Made by a program: the position numbers and the translations under genes
The notes under the pieces: generated by a model
Seen by the model: only the letters and a program-made list of their open reading frames with translations
Told to the model about the DNA's origin: nothing
Databases searched by the model: none
Shown: positions 36,908 to 52,683 of the stretch, piece after piece
Layout: each line of letters starts with the position of its first letter
Numbering within the stretch: the stretch's first letter is position 1
Assembly: GCA_035510735.1 (NCBI GenBank)
Contig: DATKGN010000004.1
Span: 177,039-241,038, forward strand
Reading direction: 5' to 3'
Length of the DNA stretch: 64,000 nucleotides
Source of the DNA: Patescibacteria group bacterium
GTDB lineage: Bacteria; Patescibacteriota; Microgenomatia; UBA10105; UBA927

Positions 36908-37513
36908 ATGTTCACATTACCGGAGTTACCGTATGCATTTGATGCGCTGGAACCGTATATTGATGCGCGTACCATGCAAATTCATCATGATAAACATCAT
37001 GCAGCCTATGTAAAAAATCTCAACGATGCACTAGTGGGATCGGATGCGCTTTTGGCGATGCCGATTGAATCGTTAGTTGCCAACCTCACCAAAGTCCCTG
37101 AGGCGGTAAGGACGAAAGTGAGAAACAATGCAGGTGGTCACGCAAATCATAGTATGTTTTGGGAGACGATGGCTCCGAAAGCCGGCGGACAACCCACGGG
37201 TGCGCTTCTTAAAGCTATAGAAGTCTCATTTGGCGGATTTTCCCAATTTCAGGAAAAATTTTCGAGCGTAGCACTTGGACATTTCGGCAGCGGTTGGGCA
37301 TGGTTAGTAAAAGAAAATGGGGGATTGAAGATAGAAGATAGTGCAAATCAAGATTCCCCATTAATGAATGGAAAGACGCCTATCCTGGGCCTTGATGTAT
37401 GGGAACATGCCTATTACCTTAAGTATCAGAATATGAGGGTAGATTACATAAAAGCATGGTGGAATGTGGTTAACTGGAGCGCAGTTGAAAAGCGATTCGT
37501 ACAACCGGCATAA
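36908..37513 (+). CDS. sodA: Fe/Mn superoxide dismutase
   Basis: [18 protein letters not shown]...IHHDKHH and DVWEHAYY signatures. ORF opens at 36881; Met at 36908 preferred. Confidence 0.9.
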
Positions 37514-37516
37514 TCC

Positions 37517-38257
37517 ATGAGGTTTCCTGATCCGGCACTAATAAAAAAACAACTCGCGAAGGAGCGGATTATTTTCGCCGCAACCCAACTTCAGGGAAGC
37601 CGTGAATCTCAAGAGGATTATTTTATTAATTACAACGATGAGTGTTTTGCCGTTGCAGATGGTGTTGGCAGTATACCCAATGGCGAAGTCGCTTCTAAAC
37701 TGGCCGCTGAAACGGCCATTTGGGGCTATAAACACATCCGCATGCGACCGTTTTATTGGGCGGATAAACAACTTCTAATAAAACGGATTTTCAGGTCTTC
37801 TAACCTCGCTGTTTGGCAGAAACGACGGGAAAGTGGTTTTGAAGCAGGGCTTGCGACAACTCTCTCTATTCTTATTGTGAGCGCGCAGAAGATTTGGGCG
37901 GGGAGTGTCGGTGATACGAGTATTCTTCTTTACCGTGACGGTCTTATTGATGAGCTGACGCTCCGCGATGTTAATGAGTTGGGGACAATGACGCGTGCTG
38001 TGGGGTTTCAACGTTTGGGACTCGTGCCGCATATAGCGGTTGAGAAATTGTTGCCACGGGACGTTTTTCTTCTTGCGACTGATGGAGTTATAAATTGTAT
38101 TGATGAAGAGGAGCTCCGCGCGACGTTTGATGTCGTTGGTGAAACAACACAGAGTATTACCAATGCGGTTGTGCATCTCCTTACCATGGCACAATCACGT
38201 GGGAGTACTGATAATATGACAGCGTGTTTAGTGAAACGTCTGGGAAACAGCGAATAA
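37517..38257 (+). CDS. PP2C-family Ser/Thr protein phosphatase
   Basis: SQEDYF, FAVADGVGS, LLATDGV and GSTDNMT motifs (metal-binding Asp residues). Confidence 0.8.
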   Translation: MRFPDPALIKKQLAKERIIFAATQLQGSRESQEDYFINYNDECFAVADGVGSIPNGEVASKLAAETAIWGYKHIRMRPFYWADKQLLIKRIFRSSNLAVWQKRRESGFEAGLATTLSILIVSAQKIWAGSVGDTSILLYRDGLIDELTLRDVNELGTMTRAVGFQRLGLVPHIAVEKLLPRDVFLLATDGVINCIDEEELRATFDVVGETTQSITNAVVHLLTMAQSRGSTDNMTACLVKRLGNSE

Positions 38258-38300
38258 ATAACTCTTTACAAGTTTATCGTTATAGCTCTATACTATCATT

Positions 38301-39785
38301 ATGCCTGCCGAATTTTTTGAACCAATTAGTAATAACGCTACGCCTCCAGTATATCGATACTTCAACGGAAAAGAATGGAAAGAAAGCACCAGTGGAAAAC
38401 GAACGTCTATATTGTCTCCGATAGACGGGTCAGTGGTTGGTGAACTCCAGGTGGTGACGCATGAGGAAATTGATGAGGTTATGGAAAAGGCCTTTGCGGC
38501 CCAAGCGAAATGGGAAGCGACACCCCTTAACGAACGAGTAAAAATCGTTCACTTAGCTGCTGACTGGGTCATGCATTACGAAGAATATTTAACGGCACTT
38601 TTAGCACGTGAAGTCGGAAAAACATTGAAAGAAGCAAAAAGCGAAATTAAACGAACCGCAGAACTTACTGATTATTTTGCAGATGAAGTGCAGTCAATCC
38701 GCGGTGAAACGCTTGATAGTGATAATTTCCCCGGATATGATAAAGGCAGGATTGCCGTCATAGAGAGGGCCGCGCACGGTGTCGTTTTATGTATTGCGCC
38801 ATTTAATTATCCCGTAAATCTAGCTGGTAGTAAAATTGCACCGGCACTTCTTATGGGTAATTCCGTTGTTTTTAAGCCGCCGACCCAGGGAGGAATCAGC
38901 GGACTTCATCTTACAAGAATATTTGAAAAAGCAGGTGTTCCTGAAGGTGTTATAACCTGCCTGACGGGTGGAGGCGGAGAGATTGGAGATTATTTGGTAA
39001 GCCACAAGAGAGTTGCGATGGTGGCATTCACCGGTAATTCTGATACAGGGATGGCTATAGCGAGTAAAGCGCCGATGAAGCAGTTGTTATTTGAATGCGG
39101 CGGTAATAACGCAACCATAGTTTTCCCCGATGCTGATATGAATTTAACTGCCAAGGAAATTATTAGTGGCGGATATTCCTACGCGGGTCAGCGATGTACA
39201 GCTATTAAATATGTAATGGGGACGCAGGGAGTGCTTGATCAATTATTGCCGATAGTTTTAGAACAAATGAAAGAGTCAGTTCATATGGGGGATCCGCGAG
39301 ATGCAACGACGAAAATGGTGGGCCCAGTTGTGACTGTTCAAGTAGCGGAAAACATTGAAAAAATTATTAATGAGGCAGTTACCGAAGGCGCGATTGTCGC
39401 AACGGGTGGACATCGGAAGGATGCATATATTGAGCCGACAATCCTGACGAACGTCAAACCGACAATGAAAATTGTATCTACCGAAGTATTCGGTCCGGTT
39501 ATCTCGTTTATAACGGTTAACGATATGGATGAAGCAGCGCGCATTGTGAATGGACAACGATTTGGACTTCAGGCGTGTGTATTTACAAAAGACGAGGGAA
39601 CGGGCCTCAAATATTCAAATCTCCTAAATGTCGGCACGGTTCAGATTAACGGTTCACCACAGAGGGGACCTGATCACTTCCCGTTCCTGGGAGTCAAACA
39701 GTCAGGGATCGGCGTGCAAGGTGTACGTTATTCCCTCGAGGCTATGTCCCGCCTCAAGCCGGTTGTTATTAATAAACCCCAGTAA
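38301..39785 (+). CDS. aldehyde dehydrogenase family, likely non-phosphorylating NADP-dependent glyceraldehyde-3-phosphate dehydrogenase (GapN-like)
   Basis: ALDH fold with catalytic Cys (FECGGNNATIV... AGQRCTA) and Glu. N-terminal region resembles GapN. Confidence 0.7.
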   Translation: MPAEFFEPISNNATPPVYRYFNGKEWKESTSGKRTSILSPIDGSVVGELQVVTHEEIDEVMEKAFAAQAKWEATPLNERVKIVHLAADWVMHYEEYLTALLAREVGKTLKEAKSEIKRTAELTDYFADEVQSIRGETLDSDNFPGYDKGRIAVIERAAHGVVLCIAPFNYPVNLAGSKIAPALLMGNSVVFKPPTQGGISGLHLTRIFEKAGVPEGVITCLTGGGGEIGDYLVSHKRVAMVAFTGNSDTGMAIASKAPMKQLLFECGGNNATIVFPDADMNLTAKEIISGGYSYAGQRCTAIKYVMGTQGVLDQLLPIVLEQMKESVHMGDPRDATTKMVGPVVTVQVAENIEKIINEAVTEGAIVATGGHRKDAYIEPTILTNVKPTMKIVSTEVFGPVISFITVNDMDEAARIVNGQRFGLQACVFTKDEGTGLKYSNLLNVGTVQINGSPQRGPDHFPFLGVKQSGIGVQGVRYSLEAMSRLKPVVINKPQ

Positions 39786-40898
39786 TTATTTCCCCCTGAC
39801 ACGAAGAGAGTCTGCAGTGAATGTTATTCCTAAGGGATTTATGCGGACACGTTTCGATCCTGATGAGACAACTCCCCCATGCCAGACTTTTAACCCGTGG
39901 CGTTTCGCACATTTTTTCACTGTTGGAATATCGTCTGCTGGAAGAAACAGTGCAAACCCCGCACCCATGTTAAACGTTTCATACATTTCTTTATCGCTCA
40001 GTCTGCTTACGGATTGTATATAGGAAAATTCAGGTTGGGGAGCGGGTACACTATCAATAGTGTATGTAAAGTCACGGTCAGCACGCATGAGTTTTCGCCA
40101 CCCGTGTCCGGTGATATTTACCATGTAATGGATGTCTACGTCATGGCCGAAAAGATCTGACACAAATTTTGCATATATATGCGTGGGCCGAAGAAGCGCT
40201 TCACCAAACAATGATCCGTCAGATAAACGAGTAGCATATCCTTTCTGTACGAGCCCAGCGACCGATCTTGCAAGTGTCAATCCGTTTGCGTGAATGCCGC
40301 TACTTTCCACGAGAACAATTGCATCTCCGGAGGTTAATTTGTCGCCCAACGTAAGATGGTTCTTTGGTTGTATGATGCCAACGGCAGAACCCGCCAGATC
40401 AATTGTGTCCGGTCGAAGGATATCCTTGAGCGTCGGCGTCTCACCGCCGCCCCAGATCGCGCCGCTATCACGGCACGCCGCGGCCCAGCCTGTTATCAAG
40501 TCGACAGCACGTTTTTTATCTGAAAACCAATCTGAACCGCCGACGGCAAAATATGCCGTTACTACTTGAGGCGAGGCACCCACGACGATTAAATCGTTTA
40601 CAATCATTGCAACGGTGTCCTTCGCGATTGCTCCATAATAGGATTTGCCCGTGACAGATCTCATCTCATCGGCGACGAGATTTTTTGTTCCTAAGCCCTC
40701 CATCACAAATGCACGGTAGCAGTTTTTTTCTTCCCATACATACGCGGACTCCCCCCGGCTTTTTGAAACTTCATGAACCGATGTATGCCGACCACCGAGT
40801 GACGTACGTTTTCCTTCTCTTTGGGAAAGACGTTTTACTTCGTCTAATATTCGGTAACTGACACCTGCGTCCGCATACGATATGTGTTTCTTCCTCAT
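39786..40898 (-). CDS. purM: phosphoribosylformylglycinamidine cyclo-ligase (AIR synthetase), divergent
   Basis: SYADAGV, GLGTKNLVA, VAMIVNDLIVVGASP, GGGET, SSGIHANG and MYETFNMGAGF align to PurM blocks. Confidence 0.7.
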   Translation of the reverse strand: MRKKHISYADAGVSYRILDEVKRLSQREGKRTSLGGRHTSVHEVSKSRGESAYVWEEKNCYRAFVMEGLGTKNLVADEMRSVTGKSYYGAIAKDTVAMIVNDLIVVGASPQVVTAYFAVGGSDWFSDKKRAVDLITGWAAACRDSGAIWGGGETPTLKDILRPDTIDLAGSAVGIIQPKNHLTLGDKLTSGDAIVLVESSGIHANGLTLARSVAGLVQKGYATRLSDGSLFGEALLRPTHIYAKFVSDLFGHDVDIHYMVNITGHGWRKLMRADRDFTYTIDSVPAPQPEFSYIQSVSRLSDKEMYETFNMGAGFALFLPADDIPTVKKCAKRHGLKVWHGGVVSSGSKRVRINPLGITFTADSLRVRGK

Positions 40899-41827
40899 AT
40901 CTCGAGGGATTTGCGGATAGCGTTTTCAACAGGGTATGTATATTTTTTAAAATGCCTGCCGGTAATTTTTTGATAGACTGCTATATAGCGTTTTGAAAGC
41001 GCGTTCATGAGTGTAGCGGGCATCGTCGGTGGTTTTCCATCTCCACGGTAGCCGCGCTTGGCATACCAGAGCCGTAGAAATTCTTTATCGAAATTTTCCG
41101 GTTCCAATCCTTTTTTAAACCGCTGTTCATACGTTTTGGCTATCCAAAACCGTGAAGAATCTGGCGTGTGGATTTCATCAATAAGCATCAGTTTTCCTTT
41201 ATACAACCCGAATTCGTATTTTGTATCCACAAGAATAAGACCATGCTTTTTGCAGATTCTGCTTCCGCGATCGAATAATGCGAGCGCTGCTTTTTCCATT
41301 TGTTCATACAGTTTTTTTGGAACTATTTTTCTTTTGATTATCTCTTCGCGCGTGAGGCGCTCATCATGTCCGCCTTTGCCCCCTCCGTGAGTGGTCGGCG
41401 TGATAACGGGTTTTGGGAGTTTTTGATTTTTTTTCAGTCCGTCAGGAAAATGTATACCGTAAATGAACCGTTCACCCTGCTCGTATGAATACCAAATGGA
41501 AGTTTTCGTGACGCCGGAGATATATCCACGCACAATCATTTCAATAGGAATAGGTTTTGTATCGTGGGCGATAAGAACATTTGGATGGGGGACTGATATT
41601 TTATGATTCGGGACGATATCGCTTGTCGTGTCAAACCAAAACGCGGAAAGTTGATTTAATACGGCGCCTTTGTATGGTATGTGTCCCAAAATAACATCAA
41701 ACGCGGATTGCCGGTCCGTCGTCACGATGATGCGTTTGCCGTCTTTAATATAAAAATCCCTGACTTTTCCATGTAGTTTTTTTCCGTATTTAGGAAGATT
41801 AATAGTTTTAAGCATGTTAGTTGCCAT
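40895..41827 (-). CDS. purC: phosphoribosylaminoimidazole-succinocarboxamide synthase (long form)
   Basis: KVRDFY...TDRQSAFD and ILVDTKYEFG motifs of SAICAR synthetase. Confidence 0.85.
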   Translation of the reverse strand: MATNMLKTINLPKYGKKLHGKVRDFYIKDGKRIIVTTDRQSAFDVILGHIPYKGAVLNQLSAFWFDTTSDIVPNHKISVPHPNVLIAHDTKPIPIEMIVRGYISGVTKTSIWYSYEQGERFIYGIHFPDGLKKNQKLPKPVITPTTHGGGKGGHDERLTREEIIKRKIVPKKLYEQMEKAALALFDRGSRICKKHGLILVDTKYEFGLYKGKLMLIDEIHTPDSSRFWIAKTYEQRFKKGLEPENFDKEFLRLWYAKRGYRGDGKPPTMPATLMNALSKRYIAVYQKITGRHFKKYTYPVENAIRKSLEI

Positions 41828-42329
41828 ATTTTTTCCAACCCGCGCGGGTTAACGCTATATTTTTCTCGCGGACTCTTTTCTCTAAATCGAGTTTATATAA
41901 CTGTAATCGTTTAGCGAGATGTTCATCTTTGATTGCGAGGATTTGGACAGCGAGTAGCGCAGCGTTTTTCGCGGCATTGATTCCAACGGTTGCAACGGGT
42001 ACTCCAGGCGGCATTTGGACGGTTGAATAGAGCGAGTCTGCTCCACCCAGCGATTTACCGAGTATCGGAATTCCGATAACCGGACGCGCTGTATGGGCGG
42101 CAATGACGCCGGCCAGATGCGCAGCCCCGCCTGCTGCGGCGATAAAGACGAGTACTCCTCCCATGTCGGATTTTTTTACGAACGAGACCGTATCTTCAGG
42201 GCTCCGGTGAGCAGAAAGGACCCGAACGTCAAACGGAATGTTGAATTGCTCTAATATGATAAGTGCATCCCTAACGACTGGGAGATCGGAATCGCTTCCC
42301 ATGAGTACGGCGACAGTGGGTTTAGGCAT
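41817..42329 (-). CDS. purE: 5-(carboxyamino)imidazole ribonucleotide mutase / AIR carboxylase
   Basis: VAVLMGSDSD, SAHRSP and AAGGAAHL motifs. Confidence 0.85.
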   Translation of the reverse strand: MPKPTVAVLMGSDSDLPVVRDALIILEQFNIPFDVRVLSAHRSPEDTVSFVKKSDMGGVLVFIAAAGGAAHLAGVIAAHTARPVIGIPILGKSLGGADSLYSTVQMPPGVPVATVGINAAKNAALLAVQILAIKDEHLAKRLQLYKLDLEKRVREKNIALTRAGWKKYGN

Positions 42330-43731
42330 ATTTTTTTATTGTTTTTGTAATTTCATCGACAAGGGATAGCGCACGCTCCGGTGCGTCACCGATGTGACTG
42401 GCTACATCAAGACACCCACAAATTTCATCATTCTTCAGGTATTGTTTGATAATCTTATTTTGATTGAGGAGATCTGTCATTGGATTTGGCTTTCCTTCCT
42501 GAACTGCTTCCCATGACTTCATGGAAATAGTGCGCAACAGTTCATGCATCTCCTGGCGGTTAGCGCCGCGTTTAACGAGTATAATGAGGATTGATTCGGT
42601 GGCAGCAAACGGGGCAAATTGATTGACATTATATTCAATACGCCGGGTGTTAATGACGAGACCGGAAACAATTTTTTCTGCGGTTATGAGTATTTCATCC
42701 GATGCTAAAAACGCTTCCGACATGACAATCCGTTTGTTTGCAGAATCGTCAAGTGTCCGTTCTAAATAATTTACCGTCGCGTTTCCGAGGGCGACCTCGG
42801 GTAACGATGTAACATACCGTGCGAGAGAACAAATTTTCTCAGAGTTAATCGGATTTCTCTTGAACGGCATCGCGGAAGACCCCACCTGTTTTTTCCCGAA
42901 CGGTTCGCTCCATTCTCCGACCCCGGCAGATTGCAATATACGGACATCGCCAGCGAATTTTGCGAGGGAAGAGGCGATGCTTGCAAGCGCTGAAATTACC
43001 AAAAAATCGTATTTACGAGGGGCAACTTGTGAAGTAATCAGTGATGCCGGTATGCCCAGCGTTTTCATAACGCTCACATCAAGCTCTTTAGGTGACATAC
43101 GACTGCCCGTTAGAGCTGCTTTATAGCTTGCAGAGGAGCCGACTGCTCCTTTCATACCTTTACCTTTATAGATGGAGCGCACAAAGTTGAGAAATGCAAG
43201 GTCGGTTAACAAATCCTGTGCATAAAAAGCCAGTCGGTATCCGACTGTTGTCGGTTCCGCCGGTTGCAGGTGAGTGTACCCCATGCAGGGAGTGGTTGCG
43301 TATGTGCGTATATGAGTAGCAAACAATTTTAAGAGTGTAATGAGACGGGTTTGAATTTCTTCCATCGCTTCATGGATACGAATGGCGTCCGCATTATCGA
43401 CAATATCCATACTGGTAGCACCGAGATGTATTTTTCCGCCACCAACTGGCGATTTCCCAGCAAATTCACGAATTGCGGCGACAACATCATGATTTGTTTC
43501 CTTTTCAATGGAAAGTATTTCAGCGATATCGATATCATCCTCATGACGCTTCAAGTCCTCTAGTTCGTGTTTGGAAACCAGGCCGGCTTCATGCTGCGCC
43601 TCTGCCAGTGCGACCCAAATTTTGCGCCAAATACGATATTTATTTTTTTCACTGAAAATTTCCCTCATGCGGTCGCTACCGTAACGCCAGGAAAAAGGGG
43701 ATACGTAATTGGAAAAATCTGTGCTATTCAT
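42322..43731 (-). CDS. purB: adenylosuccinate lyase
   Basis: Fumarate-lyase signature GSSAMPFKRNP. About 470 aa long form. Confidence 0.85.
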   Translation of the reverse strand: MNSTDFSNYVSPFSWRYGSDRMREIFSEKNKYRIWRKIWVALAEAQHEAGLVSKHELEDLKRHEDDIDIAEILSIEKETNHDVVAAIREFAGKSPVGGGKIHLGATSMDIVDNADAIRIHEAMEEIQTRLITLLKLFATHIRTYATTPCMGYTHLQPAEPTTVGYRLAFYAQDLLTDLAFLNFVRSIYKGKGMKGAVGSSASYKAALTGSRMSPKELDVSVMKTLGIPASLITSQVAPRKYDFLVISALASIASSLAKFAGDVRILQSAGVGEWSEPFGKKQVGSSAMPFKRNPINSEKICSLARYVTSLPEVALGNATVNYLERTLDDSANKRIVMSEAFLASDEILITAEKIVSGLVINTRRIEYNVNQFAPFAATESILIILVKRGANRQEMHELLRTISMKSWEAVQEGKPNPMTDLLNQNKIIKQYLKNDEICGCLDVASHIGDAPERALSLVDEITKTIKKYA

Positions 43732-43735: not shown

Positions 43736-44833
43736 TTATGTAACGATTTTTTTCAACTGTTTAGAATGAATTGCTTCTTTAATTTCCAGTGCAACGCGCC
43801 TGCCGGCTGACATGCTGGCTCCCCAAAGATACCCTGAATACGGACCTGATGCAATACCCGGAGATCCTGGCATACGGGGCGATACATCGATAACAACAAT
43901 ATCTTTTTTGGGCGGGCCGGAGGTGATGATCGATTGGAGTGCAAACGGACCGATGACGCCGGGTGGATAGAGAATCCTTGTGGCTTTTACAAACGCTTCG
44001 CCTAAAGCGAATGCTTTTTCAAGCATTGATTCCAGCACCGTCACTGCAATATGACCTGATTCTTCAAACGTGAGTGGTGAAGACGCAAGTACAGTATCCT
44101 GATACATAGCTGGCACCCGCAAAAATCCATCAAGATTCGTCTGTCTTCTCGTGTCCGTTCCCATAAGTTCAAGGCGGTTATTAATCTGAGAATAAAAGAA
44201 ATTAAAATTGACTGGGGTTCCAAGGATAAATTCTTCAATAACCTGGGAGTCAAGTGCTGCTTTTGAGATTTTTTTGATCCGTATCAATTCTTTACTTTTT
44301 TTCGTATAGTCCTTAAAACTCGAAACGAGAAAGAACGCTCGTTCATATGTGCGCTCCCGTTCCGCAACTTTCACAATACATAGTCTGTCAATTTCATCCG
44401 GTGAATTGAAATGCCTCGGGTACCGGATCTTGGCTGCATGTAGCACATCATATTGGTTCGGTTTAGTTTTTCGTTCCTCTATTTTTAAGAGAAATTTATT
44501 TCCGAATATCGGTATATGTATATCGTTTTCGATCGCATGATAATCAAAATTGAGATACGCTTCCAGAGATCGGTGGGGGATGAGAATCGCGTTACGTTGT
44601 TGTAATTGTTTTTGAATATTCTTTGTTAACATATCATGAAAATCGTTTACCACGATGCACGTATCGATACATCCGAGACTATTGTGACTACGGTAATAAT
44701 CCGTGTATGTTTTCTCCCGGCCCTTTTGGGCGATCACAAGGGTTGCAAATCCCTCATCTTTTGCACCGCGGCAGACGTCAAGCGCACTGTGGCTTCCGAG
44801 TACCGCGATGGTAACCTTGTTCGTTTTTTCCAT
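43736..44833 (-). CDS. archaeal-type 5-formaminoimidazole-4-carboxamide ribonucleotide synthetase-like (PurP paralog, ATP-grasp)
   Basis: N-terminus VTIAVLGSHSALDV, IPHRSLEAY, PIFGN, and C-terminal GPFALQS ... RVALEIKEA blocks parallel PurP. Confidence 0.65.
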   Translation of the reverse strand: MEKTNKVTIAVLGSHSALDVCRGAKDEGFATLVIAQKGREKTYTDYYRSHNSLGCIDTCIVVNDFHDMLTKNIQKQLQQRNAILIPHRSLEAYLNFDYHAIENDIHIPIFGNKFLLKIEERKTKPNQYDVLHAAKIRYPRHFNSPDEIDRLCIVKVAERERTYERAFFLVSSFKDYTKKSKELIRIKKISKAALDSQVIEEFILGTPVNFNFFYSQINNRLELMGTDTRRQTNLDGFLRVPAMYQDTVLASSPLTFEESGHIAVTVLESMLEKAFALGEAFVKATRILYPPGVIGPFALQSIITSGPPKKDIVVIDVSPRMPGSPGIASGPYSGYLWGASMSAGRRVALEIKEAIHSKQLKKIVT

Positions 44834-44838
44834 TGTTT

Positions 44839-45846
44839 TTAATCGATTATCATGTCTAGTTTGTTTTTTGTGATCGCGAATTTAATTTCCCTGGCAATTC
44901 TTCTCCCGGTACTCATGGGCTCATTATATGTTAACCAGGAGTATGGGGAGCCCTCAATAAACAGGTTGGTGCCGGCAACAATTCTGCATGATATTTCCAT
45001 GGCGTAAAACCGCTGATCAGGAGTGATAACCGTTTCCAAACAAAATGGGCCGATGAGACCCCGGCGGTCAATAAGTTTTTTTGATGTGGCGACTATACGT
45101 TCACCCATCGCGTATGCTTCTGGTAAAAGAGACTCGCGAAGAACGAGCGAACTGTTGCCGACAACCACGTAACTGGGATCGATGTGCATGGAATGTTGAT
45201 ATTGTGAAGGAATTCTTCCCAGCCCGTCGACATTGGTCTCATACCTCCGGTCGATACTCATAAGCTCAACCACATTGGTTAATGGTGAATAAAAATAGTG
45301 CAGATAACATGTTACACCCACGATGTATTGTTGAATAACATAACGGGAGGATTTTATTGAGCGGATTTTTTCCGTAAATTCCTTTTTATTTGCAGCGAGG
45401 AAATATCCCGATCCTCCTGCTGCGCCGAACGTTTTGACAATAACAGGGAACTTTATAGTTTTTTCCGTAAATTCCTGTGGCATCAATATGCAGGCGTCTA
45501 CAATCCACTGTCGTTGCAGCCTGCGGTCTTCTTCCCAATCGAGAACCTTTTTATTTCCGAAATAGGGAATTGTTATTCTTTTATTTCCCTCTTTCCCAAG
45601 ATACGCGACGAAGGATCCGTGGGGGATGAGGATGCAAGTTTCTTTTTTCAATTGTTTTTCAACTTTTGGAAAATCGGAGTAGCGCGTTATCCCGATAACC
45701 TTGTCGATAAACGGAAACCTTCGGTAAAAACTTGCTTTATCGTGAAGTGCGATAAGCATCGTGCGGAATCCCTCATCTTTGGCGCCTTTCATAATCTGAA
45801 GAGCACTGTGGCTTCCGAGCGTGGCGATGGTGGTATTTATTTTCAT
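44839..45846 (-). CDS. purP: archaeal-type FAICAR synthetase (formate- and ATP-dependent AICAR formyltransferase)
   Basis: Blocks [66 protein letters not shown] and RIAREIK match characterised archaeal PurP. The ORF extends to 46095, which would overlap purQ; start at MKINTT preferred. Confidence 0.75.
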
Positions 45847-45847
45847 A

Positions 45848-46651
45848 TTAGTCTTTGAAATATGATACAGCATTTTTAAATAGTTGAAGACCGGGTCCCG
45901 CTGTTGGTACCGGTAAACCTCTCCGAGTATACACCTCTTTGAGATAGGTCCAGTTGGGAAGTTGCGTAAAGAATAGTGCGCGTTCAGGGTGGGGCATAAG
46001 GCCGAGTATTTTTCCGGTCCGATCGGTGATTCCCGCAATATCATCCATGGTGCCGGTCGGGTTAGCGGGGAGATCCTGATATATGCATGTATCACCCCTC
46101 ACATATCGAAGCGCGATCATTCCGTTTTTCCTCATTTGCTCCAACGTCGTCTGTTTGGTGTACAAGCGTCCCTCTCCGTGCCCGATAGGCAAAGAAAACG
46201 TAGTTATCCCCCGAAGCCAGGGTGATGAGCTAAAATTTTTAAGATCTGTCCAGCGATCTATTAACCGTGAGGACGAATTTTGAAGAAGGGCGATGTCCTT
46301 CGTTCCGATTTTTTCACTGAGTCCTGACAAGAGACCCGTATTGACCAAAATCTGGAATCCGTTACAAATTGCAATGACGAGTTTGTCACCTGCGGTAAAC
46401 TGCAAGAGCGCTTCCCATAAATGATTTTTTAACTTATTTGCGTACGCATTACCGGCGCCCGTATCGTCGCCGTATGAGAAGCCTCCTGGAATTACGAGTA
46501 TCTGATAGCGCATTAGTGTACTGGGCCGTTCAATGCAATCGTTGATATGGACAATGTCCGCATAGCTGCCCGCCATGCGGAACCCGAACTGCGTTTCCTC
46601 TTCACAGTTCAATCCGTATCCTGAAAATATAAGCGCTTTTGGTTTTTTCAT
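45848..46651 (-). CDS. purQ: phosphoribosylformylglycinamidine synthase glutaminase subunit
   Basis: Class I GATase with catalytic ICNGFQ and His/Glu. ALIFSGYG N-terminus. Confidence 0.85.
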   Translation of the reverse strand: MKKPKALIFSGYGLNCEEETQFGFRMAGSYADIVHINDCIERPSTLMRYQILVIPGGFSYGDDTGAGNAYANKLKNHLWEALLQFTAGDKLVIAICNGFQILVNTGLLSGLSEKIGTKDIALLQNSSSRLIDRWTDLKNFSSSPWLRGITTFSLPIGHGEGRLYTKQTTLEQMRKNGMIALRYVRGDTCIYQDLPANPTGTMDDIAGITDRTGKILGLMPHPERALFFTQLPNWTYLKEVYTRRGLPVPTAGPGLQLFKNAVSYFKD

Positions 46652-46685
46652 AATTAATATATTATCGTGTTAACATATGAATATA

Positions 46686-49589
46686 CTAATAATCCCGAAA
46701 CGTGCGCTGATATGCCTCTTGCATCGTTCTGAGTGAGCATCGAATAGTCACCTTATTAGCGTTACGTATAACAAAGTATTGTCCGTCAGTCACGCTACCA
46801 ATGAGGCTTAGCACATTCCCGTGCATAATCGACTCAAACTCCTTTTTGTTTTGTGGCGCGACAGTTACAACAATCCTTCCCTGGTTTTCATTCCATAGTA
46901 TGTTTTGCGGAACTTTTGCCGTTCCGGGAACTGCGGATAGGTCGATATCCAATCCCAACATTCCGCCCAATGCGGTTTTGGCAAGTGCGATACCTAATCC
47001 TCCTCGGTACACGCTTATTGCCGAAGCGATTGCATTGTTGCTTGTCATGTTATAAAAAGCACGGTAGAGCGCTGCATTTTTTTTGCCATTCACGGGCGCA
47101 TATGCATCCTCGTGTGTTTCTCCTAAAATATAGATAAGGTCTCCCGGTAATTTAACATCGAGCGAAATACATTTGGTGACATCGGGAATTACGCCGATCG
47201 CCGAGATAAGAAGGGTTGGTGGGATGGAGATCATAACGGGTTTTCCTTCGTCATCAAAGCCTTTAAAATCATTAAACATACTGTCTTTGCCTGATATAAA
47301 CGGCGTGCCGTACACTACGGCATAATCGTAGCAGGCCTGGGCCGCACGTTTGAGCTGCCCCAACCGGACAGGGTCATTTGCGCTACACCAGCAGAAATTA
47401 TCGAGTAGCGCAATATGGTCGACGTCTCCCCCTACCACAACTGCATTTCGTATTGCTGTATCAATTGAACAGGCTGCCATGTAATAGGCGTCATAATCGC
47501 TGTAGCGTGGATATAAACCCTGTGACAGCACAACTCCTTTTTGCGAAGAGAGAACCGGGCGGGAAACGGTTGCGTCGGCATTGATGCGCCCGCGGCCCTG
47601 CAACGGTTTTAATACGGAAAATCCCTGAACCTGATGATCATACTGCTGTGATATAAATGAAAAGCCTGCAATGTTCGGATCTGACAGTTTTGAAAGAAGC
47701 GCTTCTGTTTGGGAATCAAAAAGTTTTGCGTCAACGCCCTTAAGTGTTTTGGGCGGAGCAACTGTTGTAAGCCTGCGTGGTGGGAGACCGTCATGGAGAA
47801 ATTCCATGTCGAGATCCATAACAACCTCTTTATAATAGGTAACCACACACTTGCCTGATTTGGTAAACTCACCGATAACTGTGGCTTCGACGCCCCTTCG
47901 TTTCATGAGACGCGAAAACGCCGGCCACTTATTTTTTGGAACGGCGAGCGTCATGCGTTCCTGCGACTCGGAAATCCACAATTGCCATGGTGCAAGACCA
48001 GGATATTTTACCGGAATTTTATCGAGAGTGACAATGCAGCCGCCCGATTCTTTTGCCATTTCAGCAACGGAACAGGATAAGCCGCCCGCGCCGTTGTCGG
48101 TGATACTATGAAACAATCCAATGTCGCGGGCTTCTTTGACGATCGCGTCGCTTAACTTTTTTTGTGTGATGGGGTCTCCGATCTGAACTGCAGTAGCGGG
48201 GCTGCCGGTGCTCAGGGCCTCAGATGAAAATGTTGCCCCGTGGATGCCGTCAAGCCCAACACGGCCGCCGACCATCACAATGAGGTCGTCGGGTTGAGCA
48301 TGTTTTTCATACATTTTCTTACCTTTTATTTTTCGTGGAAGCAGACCTACGGTTCCTGCAAAAACAAGCGGTTTGCCGCGGTATCTGTCGTCAAAAAATA
48401 TAAATCCCTGCGGGGTCGGAATTCCGGAACAGTTGCCTCCTGCGTTGACCCCTGCTACGACGCCGTCAAAGATGCGCCGCGCTGATAACATCGGTTGTGT
48501 CCGTTCCGTATCGCGATAGAGGATGGAGGTATTTTTTGGCGGCGCCAGGCAAAATCCGTATGTATTAATAATCGGTTTTGCCCCGAGTCCGAATCCGATT
48601 GCGTCGCGATTCACGCCGACGATGCCGGTAATTGCACCGCCAAATGGGTCGAGAGCTGAGGGACTGTTGTGCGTTTCCACTTTATGGGAAATCATAAAGG
48701 TGTCGTCAAACGTGATTGCTCCGCTGTTGTCGGTAAATACAGAAACGCAGATATCCTTTTTCCTTTTTTGTTTTCGAATAATGTCAGTTGCTCTCTTAAT
48801 ATATGTGCGAAACAACCCCTTGGGCACATCATCAATATGGTCGGCAAATATCGTGTGTTTACAGTGTTCGCTCCATGTCTGTGCTATGGACTCAAGCTCT
48901 ATATCCGTTGGGTGCCGTCCGATTTTTCTAAAATATTTTTGTATGGCCTTCATGTAAGTGAGATCAAGAGCGAGAGGGCCACGATGAGTCCCGTCATCAT
49001 TTATAATTCCCTTCTTACCGATGTTCACGAGCTCTTCGTCGGAAACGTCTAGTGACACATCATTTACCCGTTGGGTTTTTGTAAGATGTACTTTCGGGAT
49101 TTGGTACCCGGTACGGTGTCCTTTATGAAATTCTCTGGAGCTTCGCACATATGCGCTTTGAATAAGCGGATTATAGAGACTTGCGGCTACCATTTTTATG
49201 CGTTGATCGGATATGGCACCATCTACAAAAAGTATTTGTGATGTATATACACTTGGTGCATCGAAAAAATCTTTATGCAATGTATCTGCAATCATTTCTT
49301 TCGTGGTATTTCCTATATTATCCGTTACTCCCGGTAAATATCCAATTTCAATCGCCCACGTAAATTTTTTTAGCGCCAGTGGTTTATCTACTGATGCTTT
49401 TTGAGTTAACGGGTGAGTAAGAAGTGGGATAATTCGGGTGACATCTTTTGATGATAAATCGGAGTCGACCGTATAGACATCAACGACATATGTTTTTGTC
49501 ACATTAAATCCGTCCTCGCGCAATCGCTTACATAATGCAATTGCACGAGGATCCGGAACTGTTGATGCTACCTCAATTCTTATTGCCAT
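46686..49589 (-). CDS. purL: PurS-PurL fusion: phosphoribosylformylglycinamidine synthase II with N-terminal PurS-like domain
   Basis: About 80-aa PurS-like N-domain, then the PurL AIRS/AIRS_C duplicated domains. 967 aa. Confidence 0.8.
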   Translation of the reverse strand: MAIRIEVASTVPDPRAIALCKRLREDGFNVTKTYVVDVYTVDSDLSSKDVTRIIPLLTHPLTQKASVDKPLALKKFTWAIEIGYLPGVTDNIGNTTKEMIADTLHKDFFDAPSVYTSQILFVDGAISDQRIKMVAASLYNPLIQSAYVRSSREFHKGHRTGYQIPKVHLTKTQRVNDVSLDVSDEELVNIGKKGIINDDGTHRGPLALDLTYMKAIQKYFRKIGRHPTDIELESIAQTWSEHCKHTIFADHIDDVPKGLFRTYIKRATDIIRKQKRKKDICVSVFTDNSGAITFDDTFMISHKVETHNSPSALDPFGGAITGIVGVNRDAIGFGLGAKPIINTYGFCLAPPKNTSILYRDTERTQPMLSARRIFDGVVAGVNAGGNCSGIPTPQGFIFFDDRYRGKPLVFAGTVGLLPRKIKGKKMYEKHAQPDDLIVMVGGRVGLDGIHGATFSSEALSTGSPATAVQIGDPITQKKLSDAIVKEARDIGLFHSITDNGAGGLSCSVAEMAKESGGCIVTLDKIPVKYPGLAPWQLWISESQERMTLAVPKNKWPAFSRLMKRRGVEATVIGEFTKSGKCVVTYYKEVVMDLDMEFLHDGLPPRRLTTVAPPKTLKGVDAKLFDSQTEALLSKLSDPNIAGFSFISQQYDHQVQGFSVLKPLQGRGRINADATVSRPVLSSQKGVVLSQGLYPRYSDYDAYYMAACSIDTAIRNAVVVGGDVDHIALLDNFCWCSANDPVRLGQLKRAAQACYDYAVVYGTPFISGKDSMFNDFKGFDDEGKPVMISIPPTLLISAIGVIPDVTKCISLDVKLPGDLIYILGETHEDAYAPVNGKKNAALYRAFYNMTSNNAIASAISVYRGGLGIALAKTALGGMLGLDIDLSAVPGTAKVPQNILWNENQGRIVVTVAPQNKKEFESIMHGNVLSLIGSVTDGQYFVIRNANKVTIRCSLRTMQEAYQRTFRDY

Positions 49590-49591
49590 AG

Positions 49592-51766
49592 TTATAATCC
49601 GATATCGGTACGGTATTGCATACCGTTAAAACTAATTTGTTTTCCGATAAGCGCATATACCTGTGCACGGGCTTTTTCTATTGAACTCTCCCACGCAGTG
49701 ATTCCGAGAACTCTTCCGCCGGTTGTAATTGTCGTCGATTCACTCCGCGAGGTGCCGGCATGAAACACAGTCACTGTATTGTTATGCGGTTTCGCTAGCC
49801 CCACTATTTGTATGTTTTTTAAATAGTGCCCCGGATAGCCCGGTGCCGCTAAAACAACACATACGCAGGTTTGGTTGCTGAAAGATACGAGCCGCGGGGA
49901 AAGAGAGCCGTTGAGACAGGCTTCAACGATAGATAATAGATCGCTCTTAAGAAGCGGTAATTGGACCTCTGTTTCGGGGTCTCCAAATCTGCAGTTAAAT
50001 TCCAAAATATAGGGTTTTCCCTCCGCGATCATCAATCCTGCATAGAGAACACCTTGATATGGTCGACCCTCCTTTTTCATGCATTGAACTGCATATTGTA
50101 ATAACTGATATATCTTCTTTAGTTGCTGTGGAGTCGCGTTATCGGATGGCGCCATTGATCCCATGCTTCCGGTATTGGGACCAACATTACCATCTCCGAG
50201 TCGCTTGTAGTCTGAGGTTGCAATAATCGGAGCGACCCGTGTGCCGTCACTAAAGACCATAACTGACACTTCTTTTCCGACAAGTTTTTCCTGAATCACT
50301 ATTCGATCTCCCGCTCGTCCCAACGTTTTATTAATCATAAGCGATCGTATTGCATCACTTGCAGTCTTCATGCTGTCACAGACGAAAACTCCTTTACCCT
50401 GACAGAGCCCGTCCGCTTTAATGACGACATTACCGTTATATTGTCCGCTGTATGCAATTGCAGATTTCGGATCATTGAAAGTCTTTGAGGCTGGACGGGG
50501 GAGGTTGTGGCGTTTTAAAAATTCAGAGGCCCAAACTTTACTGGTTTCTAATTGTGCTGCTTCGCGGGTTGGTCCGAAGATTTGTAGGCCCTCTTGGGTA
50601 AATTTGTTGACGATTCCCAAAGACAGGGGAGCTTCGGGTCCGACGACCGTAACATCAATGCCTGCCGTCTTTGCAAATTGCAGGAGCCCATCAACATTAT
50701 CGGCGGCAATCGGTAAATTTTGGCCTAACGTCGAAGTGCCACCATTGCCCGGGGCAAAGTATAGTTGCCCAATATTTTTTGATTTCGCGAGCTTCCATCC
50801 GATAGCGTGTTCACGGCCGCCTGACCCTACAATCAATATTGTCTTTTTGTCTACGATTTTCATTATTTTTCTTTCAAATTCCTTTTTCAAAGGTAAACCC
50901 ACCCGCGCGCCGGACTTACGTACGCAAAATCCTGCGAGCGTATTGCCTGCATCTGCGCACATTCTTAAATTTTTTTGACGGAGGACCCCCCATAAATAAC
51001 CGGCAATGAACGCATCACCTGCGCCGGTTGTATCTACCGCAGAAACCGAAACCGTAGGAATATGTGTGATGCAATAGATTATGGAAACAAAACATCCGTT
51101 GGATCCGTCCGTGATAACGACAGTGGAAACGCCAAGATCATGCAGTAGTTTTGTTCCTGTTAGATTTTCTTTTCCCGTTAGCGTTTGCAATTCTTCTTTG
51201 GTTAGAAAAACGATTGCGCATCGGCGAAGAATCGGTGTGAGGCGGGTCATCCCCAGTCTGCAGTAGATAATCCCTGGGGCAAAAGAGATAATTATAGTTT
51301 TATGTAATTTAGAAATGAAAGATTCCTGCACACTCAGCTGTTTGGTATTAACGAATGAACTTACGTGCATAATTTTAGTGTGGATTGTTGATGGCGCCGG
51401 CATATCGCGTGAAGTGAGATCGCTATTTATTCCCGGAAAAATATTCAGAAGCCGATGCCCCTTTTTATCTACAAGTCCCAAAACAACACCGCTGTTACCA
51501 GATTTTTTCCGTATTAACGTTGTGTCTACATGGTCTGCCTTAAAAGCCGAGATATGTAATTTCCCCTCCGCGTCATCGCCGATTGTACCGATGAACGCGG
51601 CTTTTTGACCGAGCCGACCCAGTGCGGCTATTGTATTTGCGGCTGACCCGCCGGGTGCGCGTGTTTCGTATTCCACGAGCGCCTCGCCTTCACTTGTAAA
51701 TTGGGGGACTGTGCCCAAGCGATCAACATTCAGCGCACCGAAACCGATAATGTCGTAGGTTTTCAT
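49592..51766 (-). CDS. purD: fusion of PfkB-family (ribokinase-like) sugar/nucleoside kinase with phosphoribosylamine-glycine ligase (PurD)
   Basis: Residues 1-300 carry the GG motif (PGGSAANTIAALG) and the ribokinase anion-hole motif VDTTGAGDAFIAGY. Residues 302-724 are PurD (ILIVGSGGREHA...). No stop codon between the two halves. Confidence 0.8.
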   Translation of the reverse strand: MKTYDIIGFGALNVDRLGTVPQFTSEGEALVEYETRAPGGSAANTIAALGRLGQKAAFIGTIGDDAEGKLHISAFKADHVDTTLIRKKSGNSGVVLGLVDKKGHRLLNIFPGINSDLTSRDMPAPSTIHTKIMHVSSFVNTKQLSVQESFISKLHKTIIISFAPGIIYCRLGMTRLTPILRRCAIVFLTKEELQTLTGKENLTGTKLLHDLGVSTVVITDGSNGCFVSIIYCITHIPTVSVSAVDTTGAGDAFIAGYLWGVLRQKNLRMCADAGNTLAGFCVRKSGARVGLPLKKEFERKIMKIVDKKTILIVGSGGREHAIGWKLAKSKNIGQLYFAPGNGGTSTLGQNLPIAADNVDGLLQFAKTAGIDVTVVGPEAPLSLGIVNKFTQEGLQIFGPTREAAQLETSKVWASEFLKRHNLPRPASKTFNDPKSAIAYSGQYNGNVVIKADGLCQGKGVFVCDSMKTASDAIRSLMINKTLGRAGDRIVIQEKLVGKEVSVMVFSDGTRVAPIIATSDYKRLGDGNVGPNTGSMGSMAPSDNATPQQLKKIYQLLQYAVQCMKKEGRPYQGVLYAGLMIAEGKPYILEFNCRFGDPETEVQLPLLKSDLLSIVEACLNGSLSPRLVSFSNQTCVCVVLAAPGYPGHYLKNIQIVGLAKPHNNTVTVFHAGTSRSESTTITTGGRVLGITAWESSIEKARAQVYALIGKQISFNGMQYRTDIGL

Positions 51767-52677: not shown

Positions 52678-52683
52678 ATGGTT

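Follow-up and report, generated by a model that had tools for sequence, protein, structure and literature searches.

A bacterial purine operon contains two adjacent PurP genes

The DNA analyzed here (the window, 64 kb in full) carries a purine operon in which two PurP genes, termed PurP-B and PurP-A herein, lie between two blocks of other pur genes (Table 1). The frames of the downstream block overlap or are 4 nucleotides (nt) apart, and its order of purB, purE, purC, and purM is repeated in most related loci. The PurP genes are packed tightly between the two blocks, with 1 nt between the purQ stop codon and the PurP-B ATG, 5 nt between the PurP-B stop codon and the PurP-A ATG, and 4 nt between the PurP-A stop codon and the purB ATG. 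The operon is near complete for purine synthesis (purF, purD, a purN-like gene, purL, purQ, purM, purE, purC, purB, and the PurP pair), and genes for purine conversion and salvage adjoin it. Gene calls made independently on four public contigs of identical sequence gave the same products of 335 and 365 amino acids (aa), and no tRNA or Rfam match was found in the window.

Table 1. Genes of the purine cluster in the window (Pfam/NCBIfam, family match in these databases)
Feature	Coordinates	Strand	Basis and remarks
Downstream operon block, purB-purE-purC-purM	39786-43731	-	
purM	39786-40898	-	Pfam/NCBIfam
purC	40895-41827	-	Pfam/NCBIfam
purE	41817-42329	-	Pfam/NCBIfam; class-I-type
purB	42322-43731	-	Pfam/NCBIfam; public gene calls give Lyase_1 and ADSL_C
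PurP-A	43736-44833	-	365 aa; cluster II (PurP III-type) PurP, remodelled partner
PurP-B	44839-45846	-	335 aa; cluster I (Ib-like) PurP; ATG at 45846
Upstream operon block, purQ to purF	45848-55324	-	Pfam/NCBIfam
purQ	45848-46651	-	Pfam/NCBIfam
purL	46686-49589	-	Pfam/NCBIfam
PfkB-kinase::purD fusion	49592-51766	-	Pfam/NCBIfam
PurN-like, 304 aa	51763-52677	-	Pfam/NCBIfam, weak family assignment
HAD-like, 349 aa	52684-53733	-	Pfam/NCBIfam, weak family assignment
purF	53705-55324	-	TIGR01134, E 2.6e-60, match from residue 36; true start probably later than called
Conversion and salvage genes adjoining the operon	55427-62136		
purA	55427-56971	+	Pfam/NCBIfam
202-aa ORF	57017-57625	+	No match in Pfam or NCBIfam
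Purine nucleoside phosphorylase	57606-58460	-	Pfam/NCBIfam
guaB	58462-59925	-	Pfam/NCBIfam
guaA	59916-61448	-	Pfam/NCBIfam
Phosphoribosyltransferase	61513-62136	-	Pfam/NCBIfam

The host is bacterial, as the earlier note on this DNA had supposed: genes for class A penicillin-binding proteins, BacA, sortase, and type IV pili are also found in the window, and the proteins closest to those of the window come from named Patescibacteria/Microgenomates.

Both proteins belong to the PurP family

The DUF1246 and DUF1297 domains of Pfam were matched by PurP-B with E values of 6e-40 and 3e-68 and by PurP-A with E values of 4e-41 and 2e-59; all four matches lie above the gathering scores, which places both proteins in the PurP family. 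In phmmer searches of solved structures, PurP-B matched 2r84 (PF1517; 1.8e-93) and 2r7k (Methanocaldococcus jannaschii PurP, MjPurP; 2.5e-88), and PurP-A matched 2r7k (3e-61). The top structural matches (Foldseek) of the AlphaFold model of PurP-A (pLDDT of 89.5) were MjPurP 2r7k/l/m, with TM scores of 0.81 to 0.83. No cluster II protein is among the solved structures in the PDB. The block-for-block resemblance of the 335-aa ORF to archaeal PurP that had been noticed earlier is thus borne out by the domain and structure matches, and all seven motifs quoted at that time are present in the translation. The second paralog, which had been placed upstream, does have both the N- and C-terminal domains and is the more divergent of the two, but it lies downstream in the direction of transcription, its coordinates being lower on the plus strand. 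PurP-A and PurP-B share 35% identity across their full length, far above chance. The NCBIfam models NF009778 to NF009783, which are named "formate--phosphoribosylaminoimidazolecarboxamide ligase" and stand for the FAICAR synthetase equivalog, scored 370 bits for PurP-B and 264 bits for PurP-A, both below the curated equivalog cutoff of 590 bits. The only name given at NCBI for the exact PurP-A protein is "DUF1297 domain-containing protein."

The two proteins carry the signatures of different PurP clusters

We compared active-site residues using the cluster I and cluster II criteria of Brown et al. 2011 (PMC3261824), with positions 27 to 314 given in MjPurP numbering. In MjPurP, according to PMC3261824, Asn258 contacts the carboxamide of AICAR, His27 and Arg314 contact the formyl group, and Ser94 and Ser266 contact the 5'-phosphate. 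PurP-B has all five of these cluster I contacts as well as Lys156, Arg264, and Glu310. Its glycine-rich loop reads GAAGGSGYF; compared with the P-loop consensus (K/R)GG(K/R)G, the core AGGSG has kept the length and the GG and has lost both basic residues, and most bacterial relatives of PurP-B have AGG(K/H/R)G at this site.

PurP-A retains His27, Ser94, Lys156, Ser266, and Arg314 and has the cluster II residues His258 (His261 in its own numbering), Asp310, Arg93, and Glu255; position 264 is Leu. Where MjPurP has PGARGGRGYF, the loop of PurP-A is AERERTYERAFF, which is free of glycine and two residues longer. All published cluster II features are thus found in PurP-A, namely, His258, a longer, charged, and glycine-poor loop, His27 and Arg314, and a cluster Ib partner.

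The same division was seen when signatures were scored on 312 ORFs from related loci (163 B-type and 149 A-type). Glu310 and the GG loop were present in 163/163 B-type ORFs, and Asn258 was present in all bacterial B-type ORFs (n = 162 to 163). The loop longer by two residues, which contains an ER motif but lacks GG, was found in 149/149 A-type ORFs; His258 was found in all bacterial A-type ORFs (n = 148 to 149) and in 120/120 archaeal cluster II sequences, and Asp310 in the 147/147 A-type ORFs that cover this position, two others ending earlier. The A-type signature is shared by named cluster II proteins from Ferroglobus, Geoglobus, Archaeoglobus, Bathyarchaeota, and Thermoproteota. The class-specific residues of PurP-A are invariant in archaea and bacteria alike, and the cluster I/II split had a neighbor-joining bootstrap of 100/100. 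Judged by these signatures, PurP-A and PurP-B are an ancient cluster I/cluster II pair and not recent duplicates. The earlier description of tandem paralogs therefore holds with respect to adjacency and family, but not in the sense of a simple tandem, and the comparison with characterized PurP that had been suggested returned PurP-specific matches, with cluster I residues in PurP-B and cluster II residues in PurP-A. One position sets the bacterial proteins apart: Arg264 is invariant both in cluster I and among the archaeal members of cluster II, whereas 141 of 148 bacterial A-type sequences have Leu, suggesting that the bacterial partner may not work exactly as the archaeal one does.

PurP-A and PurP-B occur together and are equally conserved

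Related loci were collected from both directions. Of the 79 informative genome loci from the search seeded on PurP-A, which used a narrow cluster II alignment and returned bacterial loci only, 78 had both types; the search seeded on PurP-B found both in 67/67 informative metagenome loci. In sum, a single pur operon encoded both PurP types in 145 of these 146 informative loci. There was no recognized gene between the two in 104 of the 145 loci, and most of the rest had nothing but purA and/or purH between them. A one-genome-per-species scan gave at least 600 matches, of which the best 80 included Microgenomates, Anaerolineae, and Dependentiae. Among Microgenomates the pair is common, and it is also present in the other two groups. 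Adjacent A/B pairs were also found in two loci (L168 and L169) that are archaeal by the TBP and TFIIB genes on their contigs. The statement that PurP is rare outside archaea agrees with the literature, in which PurP was found in archaea only, among 1,403 complete genomes (PMC6486802), but not with the public genomes, in which several bacterial groups are represented among the matches. Our literature searches on purP in Candidate Phyla Radiation (CPR)/Patescibacteria returned nothing specific, and an earlier mention elsewhere is possible. [quoted passage not shown] 2019). The pair was most likely acquired as a unit, by inheritance or transfer.

Mean pairwise identity over 61 loci was 65.4% for PurP-A and 64.9% for PurP-B, and the conservation of both exceeded that of PurC, PurE, PurB, and PurQ of the same operons. 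These values indicate that PurP-A is not decaying and is kept as strongly as PurP-B. In a mirror-tree analysis of pairwise distances, A and B were more closely correlated than any other two proteins of the matrix (r = 0.78); with the shared phylogeny removed, the partial r was 0.51 for A and B and 0.53 for B and PurQ, so that this test discriminates weakly.

The strict co-occurrence bears on the idea that PurP-A and PurP-B are noninteracting isozymes that both formylate AICAR and differ in formyl donor, nucleotide, or regulation. Both proteins keep the formyl contacts His27 and Arg314, as isozymes would, and PMC6486802 cites a speculation by Zhang et al. 2008 about another formyl source for PF1517. 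Isozymes would, however, be expected to be lost independently of one another, which is not what was observed in 145 of 146 loci, and PurP-A is without the glycine-rich phosphoryl-transfer loop and has an altered AICAR carboxamide contact. We therefore consider this explanation improbable.

Known IMP cyclohydrolases and PurK in the window and in related operons

None of the genes purH, purO, purJ, and purK was found in the window, a 64-kb section of a contig that is at least 382 kb long. A tblastn search of the window with CPR PurH gave nothing, and neither the PurP proteins nor the window ORFs of at least 150 aa had a Pfam match to MGS, AICARFT_IMPCHas, or PurO. The earlier remark that no IMP cyclohydrolase is visible is thereby confirmed for the window. 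In a separate search of PurH homologues for matches on the 382,480-bp contig, the best 120 matches were all at least 76% identical and were PurH of the Daviesbacteria type.

In related operons, an intact, full-length purH lies beside both PurP genes in 47 of 145 loci (about one-third), and the encoded PurH has the KH catalytic dyad and the cyclohydrolase motifs. This persistence of the pair beside intact purH argues that PurP is no simple replacement for PurH in this lineage, and the general rule that PurP replaces PurH, from which the earlier note had started, does not hold. A canonical purH in the genome had been named as evidence against a PurP role; it is present in these sister lineages, but not in the window. 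Escherichia coli likewise retains both PurN and PurT for step 3, which parallels the retention of PurH and PurP. In archaea, the Archaeoglobi carry PurH2 together with both PurPs (PMC3261824).

Of the related operons, 100 of 148 are purH-less. Where purH is present in these lineages, it was seen inside the operon (48/48 loci), suggesting that its absence from the operon reflects absence from the genome. The 100 purH-less operons have no conserved ORF without family assignment in common. A further proposal was that a neighboring ORF supplies the cyclization step, and three ORFs in or beside the purine cluster, the 349-aa HAD-like, the 304-aa PurN-like, and the 202-aa ORF, have weak or no family assignment and could be considered for an IMP cyclohydrolase. 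Among 160 related loci, however, L022 alone had the 349-aa and 304-aa proteins (the window's organism itself is L002), and the 202-aa ORF was found in none (0/160). By eye, PurN-type motifs can be recognized in the 304-aa protein, which most likely acts at step 3. We know of no link between HAD phosphatases and IMP cyclization chemistry, which counts against the 349-aa candidate. A cyclohydrolase among these ORFs is thus very unlikely, and we rejected these candidates since they are not conserved in related operons.

The window's lack of purK raises another explanation for PurP-A, namely, that it is a PurK analogue that carboxylates the 5-amino group of aminoimidazole ribonucleotide (AIR) with ATP and bicarbonate and feeds the class-I-type PurE. 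The chemistry of PurP and PurK is parallel, in that the 5-amino group of an aminoimidazole ribonucleotide attacks an acyl phosphate; PurP-A differs at the residue that contacts the AICAR carboxamide; and PurK structures are among the distant fold matches of PurP-A, with a TM score of about 0.53. Yet a genuine purK adjoins the operon with both PurPs in 26 of 148 related loci, and archaea that have a functional PurK (most Crenarchaeota) or a class II PurE (Archaeoglobi) still carry both PurPs (PMC3261824). A PurK role would also leave it unexplained that PurP-A is absent where PurP-B is absent. Homology to PurK is at the level of the superfamily fold only (10 to 14% identity), and with real purK genes in 26 loci we rejected this assignment, which we regard as extremely unlikely.

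PurP-A and PurP-B as a probable two-protein module for AICAR formylation

On balance, PurP-A and PurP-B probably constitute an obligate module that converts AICAR, with formate and ATP, in the final stage of IMP synthesis. The family and subtype of each protein, their place in the operon, their co-occurrence, and their conservation were observed directly; from these we infer the roles of the proteins, their complex, and the formyl donor. By analogy to M. jannaschii PurP, PurP-B would be the presumed ATP-grasp catalyst, which would convert formate and ATP to formyl phosphate and pass the formyl moiety on to the AICAR 5-amino group, yielding FAICAR. PurP-A has kept the residues for the nucleotide 5'-phosphate and for the formyl group and has dispensed with the glycine-rich ATP loop, and other invariant residues (His258, Glu255, and Arg93) surround its carboxamide site. 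It would be necessary for PurP-B activity, probably in a hetero-oligomer. Consistent with this, PF1517 (cluster Ib) and PF0421 (cluster II) of Pyrococcus furiosus were each without FAICAR synthetase activity alone, although PF1517 binds ATP and AICAR (PMC3261824, PMC6486802), and a heterohexamer has been proposed earlier (PMC6486802). Points against the module are the weak mirror-tree signal, the loss of Arg264 in bacterial PurP-A, and the missing basic residues in the loop of PurP-B. The earlier observation that the functions of archaeal PurP paralogues are distinct or unresolved agrees with both of these papers.

In purH-less operons, PurP-A would be the best candidate for ring closure from FAICAR to IMP. 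That one paralogue could be the IMP cyclohydrolase was already suggested by Brown et al. 2011 (PMC3261824). We tentatively put forward the possibility that PurP-A represents a third type of IMP cyclohydrolase, one that has a degenerate ATP-grasp scaffold and is complexed with a cluster Ib FAICAR synthetase; as PurP-A has no homology to known cyclohydrolases, such a role would mean a new family. Two observations speak against a simple form of it. If PurP-A were purely a cyclohydrolase, or the pair purely a substitute for PurH, loss would be expected beside a bifunctional purH, where the pair is kept; and the ATP-grasp Lys156 and the acidic residue 310 of PurP-A would be superfluous for a simple cyclohydrolase.

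Alternatively, PurP-A could be solely noncatalytic or regulatory, with the pair performing step 9 and the ring being closed by purH, purJ, or purO elsewhere, by another enzyme, or slowly and nonenzymatically. The loss of the glycine-rich ATP loop favors this explanation, as does the co-occurrence of A and B with or without an IMP cyclohydrolase, both in the related loci and in Archaeoglobi (PMC3261824), and a cyclohydrolase gene could lie on the part of the contig outside the window. Nevertheless, the invariance of His27, Ser94, Ser266, and Arg314 together with Arg93, Glu255, and His258 across archaea and bacteria exceeds what a scaffold needs, the consistent location of purH inside the operon speaks against a purH elsewhere, and the lack of a shared ORF of unassigned family in the purH-less operons speaks against a separate cyclase. 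A solely noncatalytic or regulatory PurP-A is thus the less likely explanation, and we retain the obligate module as the preferred reading.

In the literature, PurP has been regarded as a signature enzyme of archaea, and here the whole cluster I/II pair is found in bacteria. The usual description of CPR bacteria is that they cannot synthesize nucleotides, in contrast to which the pair is embedded in complete purine operons. What cluster II does and which protein is the "crenarchaeal" IMP cyclohydrolase are questions posed by Brown et al. 2011 (PMC3261824). The bacterial operons constrain the answer by the strict co-occurrence from either seed, the equal conservation of both types, the lack of any other shared candidate gene in purH-less operons, and the persistence of the pair beside intact purH. 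If PurP-A were indeed a cyclohydrolase, the pair would be a folate-independent analogue of bifunctional PurH, and the missing IMP cyclohydrolase of Crenarchaeota, Thaumarchaeota, and Pyrococcus, sought since at least 2011, would be identified. Given the probable mesophile origin and the compact operons, the bacterial proteins should be easier to coexpress and to try in E. coli purH mutants than those of hyperthermophiles, which showed no activity singly.

Comparison with known systems

Bifunctional PurH (AICAR transformylase and IMP cyclohydrolase) occupies the same position in the pathway, steps 9 and 10, and its gene lies directly beside the PurP pair in related CPR operons, but not in the window. 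Its fold and chemistry are unrelated to those of PurP, with 10-formyl-tetrahydrofolate as the donor and no ATP. PurK and PurT share with PurP-A the superfamily fold (Foldseek TM scores of about 0.5) and the acyl-phosphate logic, at an identity of 10 to 14%.

MJ0136 (cluster Ia; 2r7k/2r7l) is the sole PurP with demonstrated FAICAR synthetase activity; it is a homohexamer that is active alone, and its genome encodes PurO as partner and no cluster II paralogue (PMC3261824, PMC6486802). PurP-B aligns with it end to end (E value of 2.5e-88), with the active-site residues and the GG loop kept, but is nearer to PF1517, which was inactive alone.

The closest counterpart is the archaeal pair of clusters Ib and II (PurP II and PurP III), such as PF1517 and PF0421, with adjacent pairs in Sulfolobales, Pyrobaculum, and Korarchaeum. 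The bacterial pair resembles it in having two subtypes with identical diagnostic residues, in their strict co-occurrence and frequent adjacency, in the linkage to purine genes, frequently beside purB, and in that a known IMP cyclohydrolase is commonly missing. It differs in its host, a CPR/Patescibacteria bacterium and a mesophile judging by the habitat types of its relatives; in Leu264 of the bacterial cluster II clade in place of the otherwise invariant Arg264; in the cluster I loop, AGG(K/H/R/S)G instead of (K/R)GG(K/R)G; and in the full-length purH beside about one-third of the bacterial pairs, whereas for the archaeal carriers PMC3261824 and PMC6486802 describe no more than a stand-alone PurH2 (Archaeoglobi) or PurO in the company of the pair.

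Two tandem PurP-like proteins in a bacterial purine operon

Both tandem open reading frames (ORFs), PurP-B and PurP-A, matched DUF1246 and DUF1297, the two PurP domains in Pfam, and all three PurP sequences with solved structures, with E values of 1.8e-93 (Pyrococcus furiosus PF1517, 2r84) and 2.5e-88 (Methanocaldococcus jannaschii PurP [MjPurP], 2r7k) for PurP-B and 3e-61 (MjPurP) for PurP-A. The seven motifs quoted in the earlier note were all found in PurP-B, to which PurP-A is 35% identical. With 370 bits (PurP-B) and 264 bits (PurP-A), both score below the NCBIfam FAICAR synthetase equivalog cutoff of 590 bits. An AlphaFold model of PurP-A, computed from 78 sequences, was confident (pLDDT of 89.5), and the structures closest to it were those of MjPurP (TM scores of 0.81 to 0.83), followed by other ATP-grasp enzymes. 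The same two products, identical in sequence, are present in the gene calls of four public contigs; NCBI names the PurP-A of the window a "DUF1297 domain-containing protein," and close relatives are named FAICAR synthetase at JGI.

The window DNA is bacterial, encoding two class A penicillin-binding proteins, BacA, a sortase, and type IV pilus/type II secretion components. An identical copy of PurP-A carries the NCBI source label "Patescibacteria group bacterium," and the relatives that rank next are found in Gottesman-, Woese-, Shapiro-, Davies-, and Curtissbacteria. Scans of the 64-kb window for tRNAs and Rfam families gave no match.

Features of the window, with coordinates and strand
Feature	Position	Strand	Length	Remark
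PurP-B	44839-45846	-	335 aa	cluster I type
PurP-A	43736-44833	-	365 aa	cluster II type
purE	41817-42329	-
purL	46686-49589	-	967 aa
pfkB::purD	49592-51766	-		PfkB-family sugar kinase (ribokinase-like, residues 9-292) fused to N terminus of complete PurD
PurN-like gene	51763-52677	-	304 aa	no Pfam hit; weak PurN match (TIGR00639, E 2e-7)
HAD/SerB-like gene	52684-53733	-	349 aa
ORF between purA and nucleoside phosphorylase gene	57017-57625	+	202 aa	shares 20 nt with the 3' end of the phosphorylase gene
Other CPR-notable genes	1293-3702, 16792-19624, 31810-39785			LigD 3'-phosphoesterase domain; sortase adjoining ice-binding-like protein; two GH130 phosphorylases; also two class A penicillin-binding proteins, Fe/Mn superoxide dismutase, PP2C phosphatase, non-phosphorylating-type aldehyde dehydrogenase

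In the direction of transcription, the tightly packed operon reads purF, HAD-like, PurN-like, pfkB::purD, purL, purQ, PurP-B, PurP-A, purB, purE, purC, and purM, with spacers of 1 nt (purQ/PurP-B), 5 nt (PurP-B/PurP-A), and 4 nt (PurP-A/purB). The operon is adjoined by purA, guaB, guaA, and genes for a nucleoside phosphorylase and a phosphoribosyltransferase. Neither purH, purJ, purO, nor purK was found across the 64-kb window (of a contig of at least 382 kb), which bears out the remark in the earlier note that no IMP cyclohydrolase was visible.

The PfkB::PurD fusion, which may couple the phosphorylation of ribose to entry into the purine pathway, was seen among the fetched loci only in L002 (the same organism) and L022. 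The PurN-like and HAD-like genes between purF and purD recur in L022 only; the former has NLHPDLP and LDAG motifs, spotted by eye, and a typical CPR PurN found no match in the window (tblastn, E ≤ 1). In PurL, about 200 residues precede the start of the PurL (TIGR01736) match, and lengths in related loci are similar (940 to 989 amino acids); these extra residues could be a fused region of PurS-like or N-terminal FGAR-AT type. The 202-amino-acid ORF has no Pfam or NCBIfam match and no homologue among 160 related loci, and its "IDLEGT" motif recalls HAD motif I.

PurP-B and PurP-A represent clusters I and II

Archaeal PurP-like proteins were divided into two clusters by Brown et al. in 2011 (PMC3261824). 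Clusters Ia and Ib have the P-loop consensus (K/R)GG(K/R)G and Asn258 (MjPurP numbering throughout), which contacts the AICAR carboxamide, and every cluster II protein has His at 258 together with a Gly-poor loop, longer by two residues and rich in charged ones; the formyl-contacting His27 and Arg314 are kept in both (PMC3261824). An alignment was built from the two window proteins, MjPurP, PF1517, and 70 full-length representatives, most without taxonomy, from a search of 1.84 billion proteins. PurP-B has the signature GAAGGSGYF, Asn258, and Glu310, and PurP-A has AERERTYERAFF (two residues longer), His258, and Asp310. This split had no exception in 312 ORFs of related loci, was found likewise in 120 profile-search sequences, including named Ferroglobus, Geoglobus, Archaeoglobus, Bathyarchaeota, and Thermoproteota proteins, and had a bootstrap value of 100/100 (as for all trees here, neighbor joining). 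Class-fixed differences from I to II are G93R, Y166F, Y208N, H210N, E230Q, V255E, E297Q, E310D, V316P, A317G, and T319P; invariants common to both classes include Ser26, His27, Tyr55, Ser94, Lys156, Arg228, Glu265, Ser266, and Arg314. By these sequence criteria, PurP-B and PurP-A are assigned to the ancient cluster I/cluster II pair, of which they are new, bacterial members.

The bacterial pair may differ in detail from the archaeal one, because Arg264 is replaced and basic loop residues are missing. All cluster I proteins and 120 of 120 archaeal cluster II sequences have Arg264, whereas bacterial cluster II proteins from related loci (L005 to L167) have Leu (141 of 148), Pro (6), or Val (1). 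Unlike the archaeal consensus, the loop of bacterial cluster I proteins has the form AGG(K/H/R/S)G, without the first basic residue, and the AGGSG of PurP-B lacks both.

The two types occur together and are widespread in Microgenomates

ORFs in all fetched loci were labeled by BLAST against the window purine proteins and a CPR PurH. Both types were present in 78 of the 79 informative genome loci obtained with a cluster II seed and in all 67 informative metagenome contigs obtained with PurP-B as the seed. Among the cluster II-seeded loci, L081 is cut at its end, and L083 (1-4000), a high-GC contig of Anaerolineales whose upstream ORFs are toxin-antitoxin-like instead of a B-type gene, is the sole informative locus in which a cluster II gene has no cluster I neighbor. 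The 13 PurP-B-seeded loci with a B-type gene only all end within about 300 nt of it or run into purA. Of the 145 loci with both types, 104 have no recognized gene between the two, and most of the rest have just purA and/or purH there.

Among 1,403 complete genomes, PurP was reported in archaea only (Cruz et al., 2019; PMC6486802). The earlier description of PurP as rare outside Archaea thus agrees with the literature but does not hold for metagenome-derived public genomes: when one genome of each GTDB species was scanned with two cluster II-specific peptide patterns, at least 600 stretches matched, with 600 of 600 confirmed by tblastn, and the best 80 of these were mostly from Microgenomates (Woese-, Gottesman-, Davies-, Curtiss-, Levy-, and Roizmanbacteria) and included Anaerolineae (L082 to L084) and Dependentiae (L085 and L086). 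GTDB record titles are not reliable as taxonomy. Purine operons of Microgenomates type are found in L009, L011, L019, and about 30 more loci whose records (binchicken co-assembly MAGs) are titled "uncultured Gammaproteobacteria bacterium"; L077, titled Methylomirabilota, is also Microgenomates-like in appearance.

Bacterial cluster II proteins formed one clade against the named archaeal ones (bootstrap 97/100), and bacterial cluster I was unresolved (16/100). Two archaeal loci also have adjacent pairs: L168, whose contig encodes TBP and TrmB, and L169, with TFIIB. Such pairs have been described for Sulfolobales, Pyrobaculum, and Korarchaeum (Brown et al., PMC3261824). The simplest reading, leaving direction and donor aside, is that the pair moved between domains as one unit. 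We found no paper on PurP in CPR bacteria and none resolving cluster II function, in a literature coverage that was incomplete, so that absence is not proof.

A possible two-protein module for AICAR formylation

PurP-A is not decaying. In the 61 loci that have complete gene sets, PurP-A and PurP-B averaged 65.4% and 64.9% pairwise identity, respectively, with lower values for PurC (62%), PurE (57%), PurB (55%), and PurQ (53%) from the same operons, and the class-specific residues of PurP-A are invariant in archaea and bacteria. With ligand contacts taken at second hand from Brown et al. (PMC3261824), PurP-A retains the contact residues for both the formyl group and the 5'-phosphate. The lysine of ATP-grasp enzymes is kept as well, and the residue at the metal position is still acidic. 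The Gly-rich loop is lost, the AICAR carboxamide-reading Asn is replaced by His, an invariant Glu lies three residues ahead of this site, and an Arg adjoins Ser94.

In published experiments, PF1517 (Ib) and PF0421 (II) each singly had no FAICAR synthetase activity, PF1517 bound ATP and AICAR (PMC3261824, PMC6486802), and a heterohexamer was suggested by Cruz et al. (PMC6486802). The correlation of A and B pairwise distances was the highest in the matrix (r = 0.78), with a partial r of 0.51 that is not clearly above other gene pairs. Co-occurrence from both seeds, equal constraint, and distance correlation fit an obligate partnership, and we lean slightly toward PurP-A and PurP-B forming an obligate two-protein module that would carry out formate/ATP-dependent AICAR formylation.

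Brown et al. raised one PurP paralogue as a possible candidate for the missing IMP cyclohydrolase and pointed to an imperfect phyletic pattern (PMC3261824). No conserved ORF of an uncharacterized family was found in common among 100 purH-less operons; therefore, the pair is the only operon-encoded candidate for ring closure. The earlier note had also allowed for a neighboring ORF supplying this step, which we reject for the HAD-like, PurN-like, and 202-amino-acid ORFs, all specific to this lineage or organism among the fetched loci. That PurP-A itself closes the ring seems less likely than not; against a role as a pure cyclohydrolase, it persists next to intact purH and retains nucleotide-site residues.

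A PurK-like role for PurP-A would rest on parallel chemistry and on a window without purK whose purE looks class I (SAHRSP and GGAAHLAG motifs, which we take to be class-I-like). We reject it, as 26 of 148 related loci carry a genuine purK next to the pair, and it is further disfavored by Sulfolobus, with a working PurK, and Archaeoglobi, with class II PurE, both of which keep both PurPs (PMC3261824).

purH beside the pair

Of the 145 loci with both types, 47 have a full-length purH (MGS plus AICARFT_IMPCHas) in the operon, usually directly next to the pair (48 of 148 with L005 to L007, three loci from a protein look-up); it was seen, apparently intact, directly beside or between the PurP genes in L007 (11094-12623) and 46 others (e.g., L017 to L021, L092, and L097). 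The earlier premise that PurP replaces PurH is therefore not simply true of this bacterial lineage. The Daviesbacteria PurH of L007 aligns with solved PurH structures and keeps the Lys-His catalytic dyad and cyclohydrolase motifs. Its best 120 homologues are all at least 76% identical, and the best 120 of PurP-A reach down to about 60%. The window operon is among the two thirds without purH, and since purH, where present in related lineages, was always seen within the operon, its absence here points to a genome that lacks it, without proving this. Escherichia coli keeps two enzymes for step 3, one folate-dependent (PurN) and one formate-dependent (PurT), and the retention of PurH together with PurP in CPR operons would be a similar case.
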